Source of the DNA: Bacteroidota bacterium
GTDB lineage: Bacteria > Bacteroidota > Ignavibacteria > UBA10030 > SZUA-254
Assembly (NCBI GenBank): GCA_044449065.1
Contig: JBIOHP010000005.1
Coordinates: 107,374-171,373, forward strand
Direction: 5' to 3'
DNA: 64,000 nt
Positions 10,058-32,900 of this stretch are shown here, one piece after another. Positions within the stretch are counted from its first letter, which is position 1. The number at the start of each line of letters is the position of its first letter. The translations under genes and the position numbers were made by a program. The notes below the pieces were generated by a model. That model did not search any database and had not been told where the DNA came from. It saw nothing but the letters and a program-made list of their open reading frames with translations.

Positions 10058-10130
10058 TGCCCGGTGGTGTAATTGGCAACACACTTGACTCTGGATCAAG
10101 GAAGTCTAGGTTCGAGTCCTAGCCGGGCAG
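10058..10130 (+). tRNA. tRNA-Gln (anticodon CUG)
   Basis: Hand-folded cloverleaf. 7-bp acceptor stem TGCCCGG/CCGGGCA, D-arm GTGT..ACAC, anticodon stem CTTGA/TCAAG with loop CTCTGGA (anticodon CTG), T-arm CTAGG-TTCGAGT-CCTAG, discriminator G. CCA is not encoded. Confidence 0.8.
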
Positions 10131-10798: not shown

Positions 10799-12949
10799 AT
10801 GGAAAACCAACAATCGTTAGATTTCGAACTACCCTACGGGACGCCCAATCTTACGTTAGACCGGCGCCAATTTCTAAAAATTACGGGAAGTGGAATTTTC
10901 CTTCTGTTCACCATCGGGGATTTATCGCTTCTTGCACAGGAAAGGTTACGCAGAAATCTCCCCACCGATTTTAACGCGTTTCTTAATATAGGAGAAAACG
11001 GACGCGTCGCGTGTTACACCGGAAAGATTGAAATGGGACAGGGTGTTGTTACTTCCCTCGCCCAAATGCTGGCTGATGAATTAGACGTAACATTGGAAGC
11101 AATCGATATGGTCATGGGAGACACCGAACTTTGTCCATGGGATATGGGGACTTTCGGATCGATGTCGACACGATTTTTTGGTCCAGCTCTGCGATCCGCT
11201 GGCGCTGAAGCAAGAAGCGTTCTTTTAGAATTAGCATCCGAAGAACTCAAAGTTCCTTCGAAGAACCTGGTAACAAAGAATGGGATTGTTTTCGACAAAA
11301 CCAACAAAGACCATCAGATTACCTACGCCAATCTTGCAAAAGGGAAAAAGATTGTAAAACATGCTACCGGAAAATCGGTTTTGAAATCGGTTTCGGAATT
11401 TACGGCAATAAACAAGTCCACTCTCCGGGTTGACGCCGAGGTAAAGGTTACCGGAAAAGCAAAATATGCCGGGGATGTTCAACTCCCTGGGATGCTGTAC
11501 GCAAAAATACTCCGTCCCCCTGCTCATGGCGCCAAGTTTATCGATGTTGACGTCTCCGAAGCGAAAAGCGTACCGGGCGTCCAAATCGTCCGCGATGGCG
11601 ATCTTGTAGCCGCCCTGCATAAATATCCCGACGCCGCGGAGTTTGCCCTTTCTAAAATCAAGGCGAAATTCGATAACTCCAAATCGGACCTTACCGATAA
11701 AAATATTTTCGATCATCTGTTAAAAGTCGCCCCGGAAGGAAAAGCTATAGCGCAAGAAGGCGATCTTGAGAAAGGGAAAAAAGAATCGGGTTCAATCATA
11801 GACGAAACATATTTGAATGATTATGTAGCGCATTCGCCGATGGAGCCGCATACCGCAGTGGTAAGCATCGAGGGATCCTCGGCAACAGTTTGGGCGTCGA
11901 CACAAACGCCATTCAGCGCGAAGGATGAAGTCGCCAAAGAACTTGGCTTTTCTCCCGAGAACGTTCGTGTGAAGCCATCGTTTGTTGGCGGCGGCTTTGG
12001 CGGAAAATCCCGAAACCTGCAGGCGGTTGAAGCCGCTCGCCTTGCAAAACTAAGCGGGAAACCGGTGCAGGTCGCATGGACAAGAGAAGAAGAATTCTTT
12101 TACGATTCGTTTCGCCCGGCGGCAATTGTGAAAATTCATTCCGGTGTGACCAACGAAGGAAAAATTGGTTTTTGGGATTATAATGTGTATTTCGCAGGCG
12201 AACGCGGCGCGGAGCATTTTTATAATATCCCGAATCATAAGACGACCTCCTTCAATTCCTCGTGGATGGGATCGCCGGATTCTCATCCGTTCGCGACCGG
12301 ACCCTGGAGAGCGCCGGGGAACAACACCAATACATTCGCCAGAGAATCACAGATCGATATCATGGCTGCAAAAGCGGGTGTGGATCCGCTGGAATTCCGC
12401 ATGAACAACCTGACCGACCCGAAAATGAAGAACGTGCTGCAAACCGCAGCGAAAAAATTCGGATGGATTCCGGGAAAAGCCCCAAGCGTCAGAGGTTGGG
12501 GCATCGCGCTTGGAGTAGACGCGGGCACCTCCGTCGCGACGATTGCAGAGGTTGCGGTCGATAAGAAAACCGGAAGCGTTAAAGTGAAGCGCGTGGTGTG
12601 CGCGCAGGATATGGGATTGGCAATTAACCCGGAAGGCGCCGCGATTCAAATGGAAGGATGCATCATGATGGGGCTTGGATACGCCCTTTCGGAAGGGATC
12701 CATTTCGAGGCGGGAAAAATATCCGATATTAATTATGATACGTATGAGCTTCCGAGGTTTTCCTGGCTGCCAGAGATAGAGACAGTTATTATTGATAATA
12801 AAAATTCCGATCCCCAGGGCGGCGGCGAACCCGCGATAGTTACGATGGGAGCCGTGATCGCGAATGCAATTTTCGATGCAACGGGCGCCCGGTTATTCCA
12901 GCTTCCGATGAACGAAGAGCGAATTAAAAAGGCGCTGGAGAAGGGTTAA
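10799..12949 (+). CDS. molybdopterin-binding large subunit of an aldehyde oxidase/xanthine dehydrogenase family enzyme (IorB-like) with a Tat signal
   Basis: Twin-arginine signal RRQFLKITGSGIFLL. Aldehyde oxidase/XDH a/b-hammerhead and MoCo-binding regions, 716 aa. A GGAGG ribosome-binding site lies upstream and the start is tightly coupled to the small subunit. Confidence 0.8.
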   Translation: MENQQSLDFELPYGTPNLTLDRRQFLKITGSGIFLLFTIGDLSLLAQERLRRNLPTDFNAFLNIGENGRVACYTGKIEMGQGVVTSLAQMLADELDVTLEAIDMVMGDTELCPWDMGTFGSMSTRFFGPALRSAGAEARSVLLELASEELKVPSKNLVTKNGIVFDKTNKDHQITYANLAKGKKIVKHATGKSVLKSVSEFTAINKSTLRVDAEVKVTGKAKYAGDVQLPGMLYAKILRPPAHGAKFIDVDVSEAKSVPGVQIVRDGDLVAALHKYPDAAEFALSKIKAKFDNSKSDLTDKNIFDHLLKVAPEGKAIAQEGDLEKGKKESGSIIDETYLNDYVAHSPMEPHTAVVSIEGSSATVWASTQTPFSAKDEVAKELGFSPENVRVKPSFVGGGFGGKSRNLQAVEAARLAKLSGKPVQVAWTREEEFFYDSFRPAAIVKIHSGVTNEGKIGFWDYNVYFAGERGAEHFYNIPNHKTTSFNSSWMGSPDSHPFATGPWRAPGNNTNTFARESQIDIMAAKAGVDPLEFRMNNLTDPKMKNVLQTAAKKFGWIPGKAPSVRGWGIALGVDAGTSVATIAEVAVDKKTGSVKVKRVVCAQDMGLAINPEGAAIQMEGCIMMGLGYALSEGIHFEAGKISDINYDTYELPRFSWLPEIETVIIDNKNSDPQGGGEPAIVTMGAVIANAIFDATGARLFQLPMNEERIKKALEKG

Positions 12950-13047
12950 TATCCTTTTCTGAAGCGATTCTATTTCATGAGAGGGATACTTTTCTATTAT
13001 GTAGTGGGGTGAGGTTCTGGTGATAAAAAAAGGGGGCGTCCAAGTTG

Positions 13048-13208
13048 TGACCTACACCGTTGAACGAGATGGAGAGACTATGTGAAAACTCCAATTCATC
13101 TTTCAGTCAAGATTCGATTTATCGCAATGTGCACCGATATAAGGAGATCGCGACGCGGTGAAACTGCTCGCGATGACTTTTCACACAGCATCTGAATCTC
13201 GTTTTTCC
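13048..13208 (+). repeat. structured intergenic repeat unit, copy A (includes an extra ATCGCGA...TCGCGAT hairpin)
   Basis: Shares cctaca(c/g)cgttgaacgagat...tgtgaaaactc...aggagat...ttttcacaca with copy B at 13300-13425. The long-range arms TGTGAAAA and TTTTCACA are complementary. Confidence 0.5.
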
Positions 13209-13209
13209 A

Positions 13210-13278
13210 GGCGGTCATGATCCACACCATGACCGGAATAAAATGAAAAAGTTGTCATGAAATGGTTCATGACACCCC
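13210..13278. repeat. palindromic repeat (GGTCATG..CATGACC and GTCATGAA..TTCATGAC arms); a second copy at 16221..16410 carries an insertion
   Basis: ggcggtcatgatccacaccatgaccggaataaaatgaaaaagttgtcatgaaatggttcatgacacc recurs at 16221-16236 plus 16356-16410, with only a few mismatches. Confidence 0.6.
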
Positions 13279-13299
13279 GGCAAAGTAACTTTTAGGATG

Positions 13300-13425
13300 T
13301 AACCTACAGCGTTGAACGAGATTTAGAATCTGTGTGAAAACTCTGATTCCCCGTTTAAATAAGATTCAAAGTTTTGCAATTTGCATCGATATGAGGAGAT
13401 TTTTCACACAAATTGCTTAGTGTGG
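13300..13425 (+). repeat. structured intergenic repeat unit, copy B
   Basis: Aligns with copy A with indels. The stem arms tctgtgtgaaaactc and gagatttttcacacaaa are retained. Confidence 0.5.
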
Positions 13426-13446
13426 GGCGCGTAGTGTGGTTGTTAA

Positions 13447-13480
13447 AGGGCTCTCGATATCGGAAGCCTTTTTAATTCAG
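13447..13480 (+). terminator. candidate rho-independent terminator downstream of the tandem repeats
   Basis: aaagggctctcgatatcggaagccttttt is an imperfect GC-containing hairpin followed by TTTTT. Confidence 0.4.
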
Positions 13481-13605
13481 AACTATTGCAGGAAGTATTT
13501 CTTTAAAATTAAAGGTCGGTCGCCCGGCTTGGTCTCTTTTTTCTAATGAAATATAGCAAACGATACTAGCTCCATAACGCGGGTCCGGGACACAACCCAA
13601 ACAAC

Positions 13606-14496
13606 TTAAGGATTTTTTCCTCTTTCGTTTTGATCCATACTCTTGATAAGTTCATCAACCTCCTCAATCGAAGGCCGGTCATCGCTCAGAAAGTAATTGG
13701 TTGGGAACTCCACGATTTTCAGGTACGCTGCTTTTTCCCCTTCCTCATCCTGGATATCTTTCAGAGTGATGGCAAATCTGTGGTGATCGCGCAAATAGGT
13801 GTAATCTGAAAATGGCGTATCGAAATACGAGACCTCGAAATCTTCAACATCCTTCAACGAATCATCGCGAACATCCGTTTCCAGTTCGACTGCATTTTCG
13901 CCAAACGATTTCAGCGAAATATGAATCTTGTGAGTATCTTTTTTCGCCTCGTCGTTTGAGATAAGTAGAGCGTTGTACGATTCACCTTTTTTCAAGATGA
14001 AGCTTGCAAATGTCTGCTTCGCATTCGCCTCAATCAGTTGTTCCTCAGATTGAACAATCTCTTGCGCGAATGAAATCAAATCATCGAGCGCTTTACGCCG
14101 TTCGTGAGGATCGTGGAGCTTATCGGCCTGCCCCGCAAACACATCGAAAAACACGCGCGGATTAAAATGACCTTTGGCATTATCGTAAAAGAGCCTGAGT
14201 GTCGCGATGCGCGAGCGGAGATCGAGCTTGGAATTCAAGACACTCGACAGCAATATTTTGTAGCTTTCCGTTTTAAAATTCAGCTCAAATTCTTCCCGCT
14301 GGTGCAAGAGTTGAAAAACATCCTCCCGTAACTTTATTTGAGATTCAAGTTGGCGGCTTCTCTCCTGCTGCCAGGAACTGAATATCCCGATCGCGGTTGC
14401 CAGGACGGTGACGAGACCGGTTAATTGAGCGAAAGAAATTCCCCGTCGTTTGCTCTCAGATTTATCTTCGAGTTGTTCTTGTGTATTTTTCTCCAT
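13606..14496 (-). CDS. hypothetical membrane-anchored protein (N-terminal TM, charged coiled-coil-like remainder)
   Basis: Long ORF with a TM segment LTGLVTVLATAIGIFSSW near the N-terminus. No recognisable catalytic motif. Confidence 0.5.
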   Translation of the reverse strand: MEKNTQEQLEDKSESKRRGISFAQLTGLVTVLATAIGIFSSWQQERSRQLESQIKLREDVFQLLHQREEFELNFKTESYKILLSSVLNSKLDLRSRIATLRLFYDNAKGHFNPRVFFDVFAGQADKLHDPHERRKALDDLISFAQEIVQSEEQLIEANAKQTFASFILKKGESYNALLISNDEAKKDTHKIHISLKSFGENAVELETDVRDDSLKDVEDFEVSYFDTPFSDYTYLRDHHRFAITLKDIQDEEGEKAAYLKIVEFPTNYFLSDDRPSIEEVDELIKSMDQNERGKNP

Positions 14497-14946
14497 ACCA
14501 GTAATCTTAGCTTATTGTATGATTTGATCATTTTGAGCAGGCCGCCCTACGCATAGGTTTTTGGGCCGCTGCTGGCTCCAGATTGGACAAATTTACGTAT
14601 TTATTCCTTCTAGTCCAATTCAGATCACTCACGCCACGAATCGCTACGTGATTTGGTAATTGAGAGAGGTTAAATGCCAAAATTCAATATTCCCCGAATC
14701 CTACAAATTTAGCTCCAAATATCGTTTTGTATCTTATAGATAAGATCAATAAAATCAATGCCTTGGAATTCCAAGAACAAACTTCAAACGGAGGGAGCGA
14801 ATTAAGGGGAACTGTTAATAATGAAGTATTGTTAATCACGCTTGTAAGATTCTTTATCAGATAAAACTATCTGATAACAGGTCTTCACAAAAATACACCC
14901 CAGATTATCTTAACTCATTTTATCAACGCTTAATCCAGGAGTCCTT

Positions 14947-15531: not shown

Positions 15532-16089
15532 TCACATAATGAGGGGAATGAACATTTTTGTCCGCTGCATGTAGCGGGCGTATTCATCGCCAAACTTTTT
15601 GAGCATTTCATGCTCTTCTGTTTTTGCCGTCGCTACCAGAGCCCATAGATTCACCACCGCGCACGCTGCTGTTGCCGGGGTCATTTCCTTGAAAAAAATA
15701 CCGGCGCCGAGGAGTACGAGCGACGCATAGAGCGGATGACGGATATAACGATAAATGCCTGCAGTAACGAGCGCCGTTGTATTTTCGATCTGACCCTCCG
15801 GCTTGCCTGCTGTGCGCAAGGCGTTGAATCCGTAGAGAGGTAGCGGAATTGCTCCAAAAAGAATCACCCAGGAAATGAGTTGATTCCACGCCCAGGGATG
15901 CACAAACCACACAGGCGCGCACAACAAGGTAAGGATGAGGATGCTTTCAAATGAAAAGAACCGGTAAACGCCATGATAGCGACCAGCCCTGAGGGAGAAA
16001 AACCATGAAATAATGCTATTCGTGATGGTGCCAACTGCCAGAATAACAACAAATACTGTAGTTTTCATGGGAAATTTAAAATGAAACAA
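15532..16089 (-). CDS. isoprenylcysteine carboxyl methyltransferase (ICMT)/phospholipid methyltransferase family membrane protein
   Basis: Multi-TM protein with the ICMT-family C-terminal motif RYIRHPLYASLVLLGAGIFF...E. Confidence 0.7.
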   Translation of the reverse strand: MFHFKFPMKTTVFVVILAVGTITNSIISWFFSLRAGRYHGVYRFFSFESILILTLLCAPVWFVHPWAWNQLISWVILFGAIPLPLYGFNALRTAGKPEGQIENTTALVTAGIYRYIRHPLYASLVLLGAGIFFKEMTPATAACAVVNLWALVATAKTEEHEMLKKFGDEYARYMQRTKMFIPLIM

Positions 16090-16236
16090 TCATAAATTAA
16101 CAATAATAATATGAACGAGATGAATCTCGTTCTACAAGTTACTTTTTGGGTGCCCCCACTTCGATCTCAAGTGATAAAGTCACTCTTGCACGAGACTTCG
16201 TCTTGCGCTACATTTTTCTAGGCGGTCATGGTCCAC

Positions 16237-16355
16237 GAGTCTGTCCGAGAACTCGTAGTAGCGGGTCACCTGACCCGCGCCCATGCCCAATTGGATTCGA
16301 AATAGCCGCCGATCTGGTGATCGGCTACTACAAAACATGGTTCTCGGACAGACTC
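16237..16355. mobile_element. MITE-like 119-bp element with perfect 16-bp terminal inverted repeats, inserted inside another palindromic repeat
   Basis: Terminal inverted repeats GAGTCTGTCCGAGAAC / GTTCTCGGACAGACTC. Internal nested palindromes GCGGGTCAcCTGACCCGC and TAGCCG..CGGCTA. It interrupts the 16221..16410 copy of the repeat seen uninterrupted at 13210..13278. No ORF. Confidence 0.55.
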
Positions 16356-16476
16356 CCACACCATGACCGGGATAAAATGAAAAGGTGTCATGAAATGATT
16401 CATGACACCCTGGCATGGTGCCAATTGCCAGAATAACGACAAACACTGTAGTATTCATTGGAAATTATTCCTAGTG

Positions 16477-30222: not shown

Positions 30223-31509
30223 ATGACAGTGGAACCATCGATACAATTACAGGAAGAGAATAACCGGCTGCGTAAGGCAGTGCAGGAGTTATCGGTCCTG
30301 AACGATCTCGCGCGCGATATCAGCTCAACCATGAGTCTTGACGAGGTGATCCAGAATATCGTCAAGCGGTCGGTGCGCGCCCTCCATTGCCAGCAGGGCA
30401 CCATTACGCTCGTCAACGAAGAGGTGCGCGATGAAATGAAAACATTCATCCGCACCAACGATTCCACCGCCAACCATGAGCAATTTCATCTCAATCAGAA
30501 CATCCTCGGCTGGATGATGCTGAATAAAAAACCGATGGTCTCGAACGACATCAGCACCGACGCGCGTTTTCAGGGCATTAAGGTCGATTCGGGCATGAAG
30601 TCGATCCTCTGCGTTCCCCTCCTCATCAAAAACGCCCTGATAGGTATCCTGACAGTTTTTAATAAAAAAGATAATACGGAATTCGGCGAGGATGATAAGC
30701 GCCTGCTAGCGATTATTGCCGCGCAATCGGCGCAGGTGTTGGAAAATGCGCGTCTGTACGACCAGGAGAAGAGCTTACTTGCCATGCAGGAACAGATGAA
30801 GCTTGCTCAAAAAATCCAGTACGATCTTCTCCCTAAAAAATCTCCGGAAATCCCCGGCTTTGATATCGTGGGAGCCACGTTTCCGGCTCAATCAATAGGC
30901 GGCGATTATTTTGATTTTATTCCGTTAGAATCCCAGCGGTGGGCGATTTGTCTCGGCGATGTTACCGGCAAAGGATTGCCGGCTTCATTATTGATGGCAA
31001 ACGTGCAAGCGACATTGCGCGGGCAGGCAATCGTCAGCACGCCGCCAAGCGAATGCCTTTCCCGCTCGAACCGGCTCCTGTACGACAGCACCAGCCCGGA
31101 AAAATTTGTGACCCTTTTTTACATCGTCATCGATCCGAACAATGATCACGTGGTGTTTTGCAATGCGGGACATGACCATCCGTATCTCCTAACCTCGACG
31201 GATCAAATTATCCGGCTGAAGACCGGCGGTCTCATGCTGGGAATTATGCCGTCGTATCCGTTCAAAGAAGAAACCATTTCATTCAAACCCGGAGATACGC
31301 TGGTGATGTATTCCGACGGCGTTCCCGAGGCAAGGAATAATGTCGGCGACTTCTTTGGGGATGAAGCGCTAGAAAAAATATTAATCGAACACCGATCACA
31401 ATCACCCGCTCATATTCTTAGTTCTGTTATCGAAGCCGTGAAGAAACATGCGGGAACCCATCCGCAATCGGACGATATTACGATCGTTGTCATAAGACGG
31501 ACTCCCTAA
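30223..31509 (+). CDS. GAF-domain-containing PP2C-type (SpoIIE/RsbU family) serine phosphatase
   Basis: N-terminal GAF-like region. PP2C/SpoIIE motifs GDVTGKGLPASLLMANVQATLR and MYSDGVPEA. Confidence 0.8.
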   Translation: MTVEPSIQLQEENNRLRKAVQELSVLNDLARDISSTMSLDEVIQNIVKRSVRALHCQQGTITLVNEEVRDEMKTFIRTNDSTANHEQFHLNQNILGWMMLNKKPMVSNDISTDARFQGIKVDSGMKSILCVPLLIKNALIGILTVFNKKDNTEFGEDDKRLLAIIAAQSAQVLENARLYDQEKSLLAMQEQMKLAQKIQYDLLPKKSPEIPGFDIVGATFPAQSIGGDYFDFIPLESQRWAICLGDVTGKGLPASLLMANVQATLRGQAIVSTPPSECLSRSNRLLYDSTSPEKFVTLFYIVIDPNNDHVVFCNAGHDHPYLLTSTDQIIRLKTGGLMLGIMPSYPFKEETISFKPGDTLVMYSDGVPEARNNVGDFFGDEALEKILIEHRSQSPAHILSSVIEAVKKHAGTHPQSDDITIVVIRRTP

Positions 31510-31736
31510 AAATCAAGAACTCCAAATCAGTTCCCCGCTGAAGTAGTCCCCTCCCCCGCCCGCCGTTAGTATCAAGGTTCAGTCTGAACCGGCGGGAAAG
31601 TTGAAATCTTTCTTCCACTCCATTTATTACCCGCTATTACACTTTAAGAATAATTTAATGAGGGAGATTACGAATAGTTAATCTCCTATGTTGAATAATT
31701 TCAAGAACCTAAGTTGTTCACCGACGAATCCCTTCT

Positions 31737-31863
31737 CTAGCAGGGTGTTGAAAAAGTATCGAATTAGGACGGGTCATTCCGAACTTGTTTCGGAATCTGT
31801 TCATTTTTAGACCCTGAAACAAGTTCAGGGTGACTCGGATTGGGTTTTTCAACACCTTGCTAG
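31737..31863. repeat. 127-nt composite palindromic element (MITE-like, or a structured RNA)
   Basis: 19-20-nt terminal inverted repeats, CTAGCAGGGTGTTGAAAAAG / GTTTTTCAACACCTTGCTAG, with one G-T position. They enclose two internal hairpins, ATTCCGAA-cttgt-TTCGGAAT and CCCTGAA-acaag-TTCAGGG, whose loops are complementary to each other. Confidence 0.55.
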
Positions 31864-32141
31864 TAAGCAAAAAATAGATTCCCACATCCCTTGGAATTCT
31901 TCATACTTCTTGTTAGATTTCAGACATAATCCTCTGATTTATAAAGATTTATAGCATCATTCAACAAGATACCGGACGCTCGACCTTATAATTGACGCAT
32001 CAACACTAAGCAGGATGTGCCAAATAAGATAGTTACAGGGCAATAGTTGCCCTCGTTACCCTGAAAGATCGTTAAAACATTCGAAACGAATAGAGTAAAA
32101 GTGGGGTTTAATATCAGTGTAACGATTAAGGAAGTATTGTT

Positions 32142-32900
32142 ATGTACATGAGATTGGTTGAAATGAAAGTTGATCCGGTAAAATTACCGGAAATGCGGGA
32201 ATTCTACGAACGGACGGCAATTCCCGCCCTTCATGCGGTGAGAGGATGTTTGTTCGCAACTCTCATACAAAGCAATGAACATATCGGAGAGTGCATATCA
32301 ATGACGCTATGGAATACTCAAGCTGAGGCGGAAGAATATGGGAAAAGCCGCATCTATTCAACCCTTGCAGAGAAGATTCGAACGTATTTATCCCATTCCA
32401 ATGAATGGAAAATTGAGCTTTCAAAAGATTTAACACTTGAAATGGTTCCAATACTTGAAGAACCTATTGTGAAATCGTATCCAATAGGAGCATTTGAAAA
32501 TGGGATAAACACGCCATCCGATACGCCGCAATTATTATACGTCAGGATAGTTGGACCTAAAATTCGACAAGGCATGTTGGAGGAATTCAAACAAATTTAT
32601 GCGAGGGAAATATTGCCTGTCTTAAAAAAAGTGCGCGGCTGCCGCTATGCTTTTGTTACCGTGGGTGGAAAAGATAAATCCGACGTCATGTCGGTGACGG
32701 TCTGGGATAGCCAAGCTGCCGCTGACGAGTACGAGGCAAGCGGACTCTTCGATCAGTTAAAAGAAAAGTTGATGCACACCTTCACAGAATTATACCAATG
32801 GAAAATGGGTCTCGATAAAGACACGGATACAAAAACTTTCACAAGCGACGATATGACCGTGAAACATTATCAAGTGGTTACGGGCGAAAGCTTCCGGTAG
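32142..32900 (+). CDS. tandem ABM (antibiotic-biosynthesis-monooxygenase-like) domain protein
   Basis: Internal duplication: residues ~1-110 and ~135-250 share ...PEMREFYERTAIPALHAVRGCLFATL...MTLWNTQAEAEEY versus ...LEEFKQIYAREILPVLKKVRGCRYAFV...VTVWDSQAAADEY. Confidence 0.6.
   Translation: MYMRLVEMKVDPVKLPEMREFYERTAIPALHAVRGCLFATLIQSNEHIGECISMTLWNTQAEAEEYGKSRIYSTLAEKIRTYLSHSNEWKIELSKDLTLEMVPILEEPIVKSYPIGAFENGINTPSDTPQLLYVRIVGPKIRQGMLEEFKQIYAREILPVLKKVRGCRYAFVTVGGKDKSDVMSVTVWDSQAAADEYEASGLFDQLKEKLMHTFTELYQWKMGLDKDTDTKTFTSDDMTVKHYQVVTGESFR

Follow-up and report, generated by a model that had tools for sequence, protein, structure and literature searches.

The 656-bp spacer between two convergent genes (10799-12949 on the plus strand and 13606-14496 on the minus strand) in a 64,000-nucleotide stretch of the genome of a Bacteroidota bacterium (contig JBIOHP010000005.1; 'the window' denotes this whole stretch) holds two similar palindromic units in tandem, copies A and B, with a doublet of smaller hairpins, module M, between them. 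An earlier note on this DNA had taken the pair for a candidate tandem small RNA (sRNA) locus, with decayed mobile elements or a cis-acting repeat as alternatives. The alternatives are now favoured, by a third element with a signature of insertion and by palindromes that occur both empty and filled: A and B are probably decaying members of a family of ~120-nt palindromic, non-coding repeats, denoted R, and the block is probably a mosaic, akin to the interspersed mosaic elements of bacteria (BIMEs), in which they are joined with a doublet resembling repetitive extragenic palindromic (REP) sequences at a synteny breakpoint.

Palindromic units of the spacer

The features of the spacer and its flanks are as follows.

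10799-12949, plus strand: gene for a molybdopterin-binding oxidoreductase subunit, left flank of the spacer
13042-13061 (A) and 13294-13313 (B), plus strand: non-palindromic 5' flank common to A and B (TGTGACCTACACCGTT..), from the alignment
13062-13203, plus strand: copy A (R-A), outer arms GAACGAGAT(G) and (G)AATCTCGTT around a palindromic core of ~122 nt at 13072-13193, from arm search, alignment and fold
13147-13174, no strand assigned: GC-rich internal hairpin ATCGCGA-N14-TCGCGAT, in A only, a 29-nt insertion relative to B
13204-13290, minus strand: module M, two related hairpins as an inverted doublet, similar to REP doublets forming hairpins (REPINs), from repeat match, fold and terminator scan
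13213-13234, no strand assigned: M hairpin 1, GGTCATGAT-CCAC-ACCATGACC, the 'empty' form; its filled paralogue (16224-16368) has the element R-C, described below, in the loop
13253-13274, no strand assigned: M hairpin 2, TGTCATGAA-ATGG-TTCATGACA, with a CCAT loop on the minus strand, from pattern scan
13314-13414, plus strand: copy B (R-B), left outer arm GAACGAGAT and core at 13324-13414, without the GC hairpin and without the right outer arm, from arm search and alignment
13445-13473, plus strand: weak terminator-like hairpin AAAGGGCTC..GAAGCCTTT followed by TTTTT (fold -11.2 kcal/mol, z score -2.25)
13513-13543, no strand assigned: GC-rich hairpin with T-rich sequence on both strands, from the terminator scan (plus-strand match 13513-13530) and the sequence
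13606-14496, minus strand: gene for a 296-aa protein, family not assigned, right flank of the spacer

The tandem pair itself is beyond doubt: A (13046-13148) and B (13298-13400) align without gaps over 103 nt at 77% identity, and a BLAST comparison within the window matches them at E = 2e-17. With their flank, the copies extend over 13042-13206 and 13294-13425. The similarity begins at about 13042/13294 and, past the 29-nt hairpin that is present only in A, resumes at TTTCACACA. The shared flank, ~20 nt long, precedes the palindromic part in both copies, which shows that A and B go back to a local duplication that included the flank rather than to two separate insertions; a simple tandem duplication of 252 bp is ruled out, given that no similarity is left beyond the R unit. 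Copy B lacks the outermost 3' arm (ATCTCGTT). The additional hairpin of A, also seen in the earlier note, lies at 13147-13174, and its loss from B by deletion would be the simpler scenario because R-C, too, has GC-rich hairpins beside its 3' arm.

The distal arms can indeed close a long stem, as had been suggested: those of A are 29 nt long (13063-13091 and 13175-13203; 79% complementary) and those of B 18 nt (13327-13344 and 13397-13414; 89%), and across the middle module the 3' arm of A is 86% complementary to the 5' arm of B. Of the four arm mismatches, three are A.C when read on the plus strand and become G.U on the minus strand, where the fold energy is -50.5 kcal/mol, compared with -46.1 kcal/mol on the plus strand, and the folds are somewhat better than on the plus strand (z scores of -3.06 for A and -1.91 for B); the plus-strand fold of B is no better than that of shuffled sequence (z 0.08). 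Folded as single-stranded DNA, the two copies reach z scores of just -2.1 (A) and -1.4 (B), and these poor folds indicate that both are decayed. The open reading frames (ORFs) listed for the spacer all have at most 44 codons, and none is kept between A and B.

Module M, on the minus strand, folds well (-33.1 kcal/mol, z score -3.96), and its doublet can also form one long hairpin; on the same strand, a U-run follows the second hairpin, giving it the appearance of a terminator. The intact palindrome GTCATGAA-ATGG-TTCATGAC that the earlier note placed between the copies is located at 13254-13273, and its pattern has two matches in the window with up to two mismatches, compared with 0.01 expected.

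The terminator scan of the spacer yields matches at 13513-13530 on the plus strand and at 13274-13253 on the minus strand. The hairpin at 13513-13543, ~70 nt past the stop codon of the minus-strand gene, is likely to serve as a bidirectional terminator of both convergent genes. The hairpin with a T-run that had been noticed after the tandem pair does exist on the plus strand (13445-13473), but it is weak, and is absent from the matches of the terminator scan.

A third element in a second copy of the doublet

The second locus with related palindromes is situated ~3 kb away and comprises the following features.

16113-16132, no strand assigned: palindrome P, GAACGAGAT-GA-ATCTCGTTC, the 'empty' counterpart of the arms around the core of A
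16213-16415, minus strand: M', a second copy of module M, interrupted by R-C, from repeat match within the window
16237-16355, no strand assigned: R-C, a palindromic element of 119 nt whose 16-nt termini, GAGTCTGTCCGAGAAC, are perfect, with CCAC on each side

The two copies of M are 92% identical over 61 nt (16356-16415) and over 24 nt (16213-16236), on the two sides of R-C. The CCAC flanks of R-C lie at 16233-16236 and 16356-16359, compared with the single CCAC of the uninterrupted hairpin at 13213-13234. The arms of the element match perfectly over 16 nt, or over 30 nt when the host hairpin is included, and its DNA folds into a near-perfect hairpin (z score -7.2), with GC-rich hairpins adjoining the 3' arm.

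Several comparisons connect R-C with the tandem pair. A covariance model, R1, built solely from A and B (for which it gives 152.8 bits for the core of A and 105.5 bits for B), has its best non-self match at 16235-16359 (18.9 bits, E of ~0.08 for 128 kb of strand searched), and the boundaries of this match nearly coincide with those of the segment that interrupts the second M copy. The 5' arms of R-C and B are identical at 14 of 20 positions. In a three-sequence alignment, R-C forms all 15 of the 15 arm pairs, four of which have compensatory changes, on both sides, relative to A and B; across the arms of R-A, R-B and R-C, 90.5% of the cells are paired, compared with 22-52% when the partner is slid, and the observed values are reached by 3 of 500 shuffles. 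R-C thus appears to be a third R element.

The window contains two pairs of empty and filled palindromes: M hairpin 1 (13213-13234) and its counterpart filled by R-C (16233-16359), and palindrome P and its counterpart around the core of A (13072-13193). The empty form of M hairpin 1, with a compensatory change from T-A to C-G, is also found in metagenome contigs (L008, L021 and L029), which argues that the empty hairpin is ancestral and that R-C is an insertion. As for P, which is ~80 nt from M', its pattern has one match in the window with up to three mismatches (0.05 expected), the 11-mers of both A termini meet there in the BLAST comparison within the window, and five of the seven AACGAGAT octamers in the window fall in the two loci.

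This second locus is itself bracketed by a 52-nt direct repeat, 90% identical (16025-16076 and 16415-16466), that copies the 5' end and the start codon of a PEMT/ICMT-like gene (15532-16089, minus strand). Between the repeat copies lies a composite of ~340 nt that consists of palindrome P, 80 nt of sequence and M' with R-C; the upstream remnant start at 16415-16466 opens a 93-codon ORF through the repeats, which is probably spurious.

Another palindromic element, R-D, is found farther away, in a 630-bp spacer (31509-32142). The termini of this nearly perfect palindrome of ~127 nt (31737-31863) are 19 nt long and 95% complementary, its interior contains two inverted 'GTC-tagged' hairpins, and its DNA folds with a z score of -8.6; it is built like R, and its sequence similarity to R is weak. 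The fold scores of R-C and R-D, compared with those of A and B, fit a distinction between intact and decayed copies. Altogether, the 64-kb window holds three related R copies (at 13.1, 13.3 and 16.3 kb), plus a look-alike at 31.7 kb. The R cores are 91-125 nt long and non-coding, and the long terminal inverted arms, internal hairpins and lack of an ORF make R similar to miniature inverted-repeat transposable elements (MITEs).

A hairpin family downstream of genes

The smaller hairpin of M belongs to a family that extends beyond the window.

13253-13274 and 16386-16409, minus strand: GTCATGAA-CCAT-TTCATGAC hairpin, also present in loci L005-L049

The scan of a metagenome collection for GTCATGAAATGNTTCATGAC retrieved 45 stretches, often with several per contig (2-4 copies in several contigs). 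A few loci that appear to be chance matches, such as a terminator from the human gut, were set aside, and the remaining contigs have a GC content of 32-54%. Three contig groups could be assigned through clustered proteins that are identical or at least 90% identical to theirs, one to Ignavibacteria and two to metagenome-assembled genomes (MAGs) labelled 'Bacteroidota bacterium'.

The hairpin never lies inside an ORF of at least 100 aa (35 of 35 occurrences). Of the 30 occurrences with an upstream ORF on the retrieved stretch, 24 have their CCAT sequence on the sense strand of that ORF, with the caveat that the loci are partly non-independent. The stem bases that flank the 20-nt core differ between loci and yet remain complementary, so that selection acts on the stem rather than on a peptide. 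Partner hairpins go further still, with wholly different stems around an invariant GAACCAYTTC apex; those with a CCAC loop lie upstream in L008, L021 and L029, in L016 and L041, in L030 and L035, and in L042. The U-run that follows the hairpin in both window copies does not do so in other lineages, and for lack of this conservation, termination is not a defining property of the family. Rfam yielded no description of the hairpin family, and searches of the literature for the palindrome sequence and for repeats of Ignavibacteria gave nothing specific. Motifs of REP-associated tyrosine transposases (RAYTs) were not detected in a scan of the window and 53 loci.

On one Ignavibacteria MAG contig (Ga0156791_1098, locus L016, 9600-10700), three copies of the hairpin occur within 1 kb, one after the 3' end of a gene, one after a partial duplicate of that 3' end and one at the start of the duplicate. 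With a hicA/hicB-like gene pair between the gene and the duplicate, the arrangement looks like a local rearrangement associated with the repeats.

Synteny breakpoints and the search for homologues

The oxidoreductase is 100% identical to a protein of an NCBI 'Bacteroidota bacterium' MAG. Five contigs encode its nearest orthologues (78-84% amino acid identity), every one followed by a different gene, and on this side the nucleotide homology stops at 12967, 18 nt past the stop codon. Homologues of the 296-aa protein (84-90% amino acid identity) are found on six contigs, all with different neighbours, and here the nucleotide homology (81-85%) spans only 13578-14629, ending 28 nt past the stop codon. 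The block of 610 nt between these limits, 12968-13577, is absent from all 11 relatives examined (the five contigs with the oxidoreductase and the six with the 296-aa gene), as are R and M. Because homology to the relatives ends at 12967 and at 13578, the block lies exactly between two synteny breakpoints. The 296-aa gene, together with 133 nt upstream (13578-14629), behaves as an isolated conserved block of ~1 kb, with different neighbours in every relative.

Searches for R in sequence collections were negative. The exact-pattern scan of the genome collection gave two chance matches, one of them inside a seryl-tRNA-synthetase-like coding region, that of the metagenome collection gave none, and that of the viral collection gave 43, compared with ~35 expected by chance according to our own estimate. 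Pattern scans of the collections for P and R-C returned nothing useful. The covariance model of R had no match in 331 kb of loci, an nhmmer search had none in ~0.87 Mb of retrieved loci, and BLAST had none in plasmid and phage collections. The earlier note counted the lack of conservation and of further copies in related genomes among the outcomes that would speak against its proposal and, as far as this half can be tested, such is the outcome: no copies came to light in the collections or in the relatives. The one double match to R in the viral contigs (L054, 7740-8190, from IMGVR_UViG_3300028166_000012) is a perfect palindrome with arms of ~220 nt that covers a coding region and looks like an assembly artefact.

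Elsewhere in the window, a tRNA gene (10058-10130; Rfam, 63.6 bits) is located ~190 nt upstream of the gene pair for the 2Fe-2S and molybdopterin oxidoreductase subunits, and about 10 paralogous genes on the same strand, encoding proteins of ~700-920 aa, occupy 33286-60520, their first ~1 kb being 65-90% identical in nucleotide sequence.

Alternative explanations

Tandem paralogous sRNA genes, such as PrrF1/PrrF2, OmrA/OmrB and Qrr, are a known arrangement, and A and B resemble it in being two similar intergenic units of ~100-160 nt, head to tail, with a terminator-like hairpin after the second. If A and B were such genes, each with a promoter of its own and the second terminated by the hairpin at 13445-13473, the promoter of B could be a sigma-70-like site, ATGACA-18-TAGGAT (9 of 12 matches), that ends at 13298, just before B; the weak hairpin after B, the long closing stem available to both copies, and the 5'-terminal 21 nt, which are the best-conserved part of A and B, would fit as well. 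The known genes, however, have a promoter and a terminator for each copy, conservation across species and single-stranded seed regions, features that were not found for A and B. Promoter-like sites of this type, defined by a consensus that may not be that of this lineage, occur at the chance level (2 found, 1.5 expected), with none before A, the Bacteroidota-type motif TAnnTTTG is present on neither strand, and between A and B the plus strand lacks any terminator-like site. The Rfam comparison that the earlier note had proposed speaks against its idea, too: at the gathering threshold, the sole match of Rfam 15 in the window is the tRNA at 10058-10130, so that no sRNA family is matched, and at E<=10 the matches are of chance level only. 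The consensus structure of A and B, an invariant 7-bp stem with two short internal stems (12 predicted pairs), contains no compensatory pair, and B folds on the plus strand no better than expected at random; R-C, nested in the loop of another hairpin, has no room for a promoter or terminator of its own; and no homologue was recovered from the collections searched or from the loci of relatives. The case for a tandem sRNA locus is thus unsupported by Rfam, promoters, covariation or homologues, and we consider it quite improbable.

The repeats could also be a cis-acting structure peculiar to this locus, duplicated in place and never mobile, that stabilises or terminates the transcripts of one of the convergent genes through its 3' untranslated region (UTR). 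Arrays of transcribed 3' hairpins accumulate precisely between convergent genes, the common flank of A and B testifies to local duplication, the mismatches that turn from A.C to G.U (three of four) and the slightly better folds agree with function on the minus strand, and M hairpin 2 with its U-run reads as a terminator on that strand. Such a structure would not account for an R element elsewhere, R-C, with its CCAC duplication, nor for the empty and filled palindromes, all of which argue for insertion, and past the R unit there is no trace of the similarity to be expected after a simple tandem duplication of 252 bp. Moreover, the close homologues of the minus-strand gene (85% nucleotide identity) do without the block, which is therefore dispensable for this gene. 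This explanation is unlikely. Far less credible still is the reading of the M palindrome as the remnant of a small coding gene (C-H-E-P-F-H-D), with the 93-codon ORF across the 16.2-16.46 kb copy as its fuller form and the R copies as gene debris. The minus-strand ORF at 16.18-16.46 kb does begin with a signal-peptide-like MNTTVFVVILAIGT, and the 13-kb copy can be read as a frameshifted, internally deleted version of it. That start, though, is part of the 52-nt duplication of the 5' end of the neighbouring gene; the ORF in the CHEPFHD frame has 11-73 codons in 40 of 43 distinct contexts, counting the copies in the window, and the two longest from elsewhere (266 and 94 codons) are in contigs with a chance-like match or different flanking bases; and the frames of A and B, as read from the alignment, show no excess of synonymous changes. 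The short ORFs and the covarying stem flanks rule out the CHEPFHD coding hypothesis.

A mosaic of mobile repeats, the reading preferred here, has its own points to answer. The interiors of R-C and of A and B can barely be aligned, so that their relationship is drawn from arms and architecture, and the E value of 0.08 is borderline and rough. A target duplication is clear in R-C only (CCAC), that of R-A being ambiguous (G or TG), and the 'empty' palindrome P could instead be the product of a central deletion in a longer palindrome. The clear copies of R are three in number, all within 3.3 kb and two of them linked by local duplication, so that a high copy number is not established. The window and the Ignavibacteria-type and related loci that were inspected yielded neither a transposase nor a parent insertion sequence (IS) nor a RAYT. 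Finally, a processed or independently transcribed RNA may arise from the locus. All these points weigh against the preferred reading.

Comparison with known repeats

Among the MITEs of bacteria, those that form hairpins include ERIC/IRU of enterobacteria (~127 bp), Correia/NEMIS of Neisseria (100-155 bp) and RUP of Streptococcus pneumoniae (~107 bp). R is like these in its size of ~120 nt, its long terminal inverted arms and its lack of an ORF, in the intergenic location, which for MITEs, too, is often in transcribed 3' regions, in the size variants created by internal insertions and deletions (A compared with B), in the different stages of decay among copies, and in the short flanking duplication of R-C. 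Unlike them, it has no sequence similarity to ERIC/IRU, Correia/NEMIS or RUP, resides in an uncultured Ignavibacteria-type bacterium, is known from only three (or four) copies in 64 kb with no parent IS or transposase found in the window, and appears to have inserted into the centre of existing palindromes, not into a TA-type target.

With regard to such targets, certain ISs are known to insert into REP hairpins, namely, IS1397 and ISKpn1 into the loops of palindromic units, and IS110-family elements into REPs. Similarly, the loop of a REP-like hairpin is the exact site of R-C, and R-A occupies the centre of a palindrome with 9-bp arms. These ISs are autonomous and encode a transposase, in contrast to R, which is ~120 nt long and non-coding, and the cases of targeting seen here are two.

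The transposases of the RAYT type are typically encoded by a single gene per genome. M resembles a REPIN in that its hairpins, of 20-22 nt, form an inverted pair able to fold into a single long hairpin, its hairpin family resembles REPs in being multi-copy, strictly intergenic, biased in orientation downstream of genes and endowed with covarying stems, and the whole spacer resembles a BIME as a mosaic of palindromic units. REP and REPIN elements with their RAYT (TnpA_REP) transposases, and the BIME mosaics, have been described in detail (PMC3116915, PMC2817692, PMC3733652, PMC6006769), and REP-type repeats and Y1 transposases (TnpA_REP subclasses) are documented in Bacteroidetes and Chlorobi (PMC3733652, PMC6006769). 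REPs bear an unpaired GTAG or CGTC tag at one end (PMC3733652). M differs in having no GTAG and no unpaired tag, its TGTC being paired with GACA in the stem; the conserved part is the GAACCAYTTC apex instead of a 5' tag, and the scan of the window and 53 loci revealed no RAYT gene. The R elements, for their part, are much longer than REPs. The two kinds of repeat present here, REP-like and MITE-like, belong to known types of bacterial repeats, in a lineage that is poorly charted.

Origin of the block and implications

The likely history of the block, as a mosaic of mobile repeats, would be as follows. R elements would have inserted into the centres of pre-existing short palindromes, R-A inside GAACGAGAT..ATCTCGTTC and R-C inside the loop of the REP-like hairpin. 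A and B would descend from a single insertion, duplicated locally together with ~20 nt of the left flank, after which B would have lost the GC hairpin and the right outer arm. Module M would be an inverted REP-like doublet placed between A and B, and the palindromic pieces together would fill the junction between two blocks of synteny. Mobility would presumably depend on a transposase encoded elsewhere, either by an IS with matching ends, which would read AGA(G/A)NCT(A/G)TGTGAAAAC, or by a gene for a RAYT-type enzyme.

The present-day effect of the block is likely passive: in a 3' UTR produced by read-through, the hairpins might pause, terminate or protect transcripts, with no separate sRNA gene. 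A slight preference for the minus strand as the transcribed one comes from the G.U pairs, the better fold and the orientation of M, which matches how the family is placed after co-directional genes.

A more specific proposal, which we put forward tentatively, is that R represents a class of MITEs that integrate into the apex or centre of existing palindromes, as in the two cases seen here, and that the target hairpin belongs to an undescribed REP-like system of Ignavibacteria-type lineages. Judging from the hairpins analysed, this system would be distinguished by an invariant apical GAACCAYTTC rather than by a 5' tag and by a constant orientation within gene 3' regions, and would presumably be read by a conserved protein or nuclease.

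Because the locus looks like a repeat mosaic at a rearrangement junction, expression data are needed before it is annotated as a candidate sRNA. The charting of small palindromic repeats in Ignavibacteria-type bacteria has barely begun, and the locus supplies practical seeds for two families, the R element of ~120 nt and the GTCATGAA-CCAY-TTCATGAC hairpin doublet. Given full genomes, these seeds could help in the search for the enzyme that mobilises the repeats, and could serve to follow genome rearrangements and strain variation in metagenomes.

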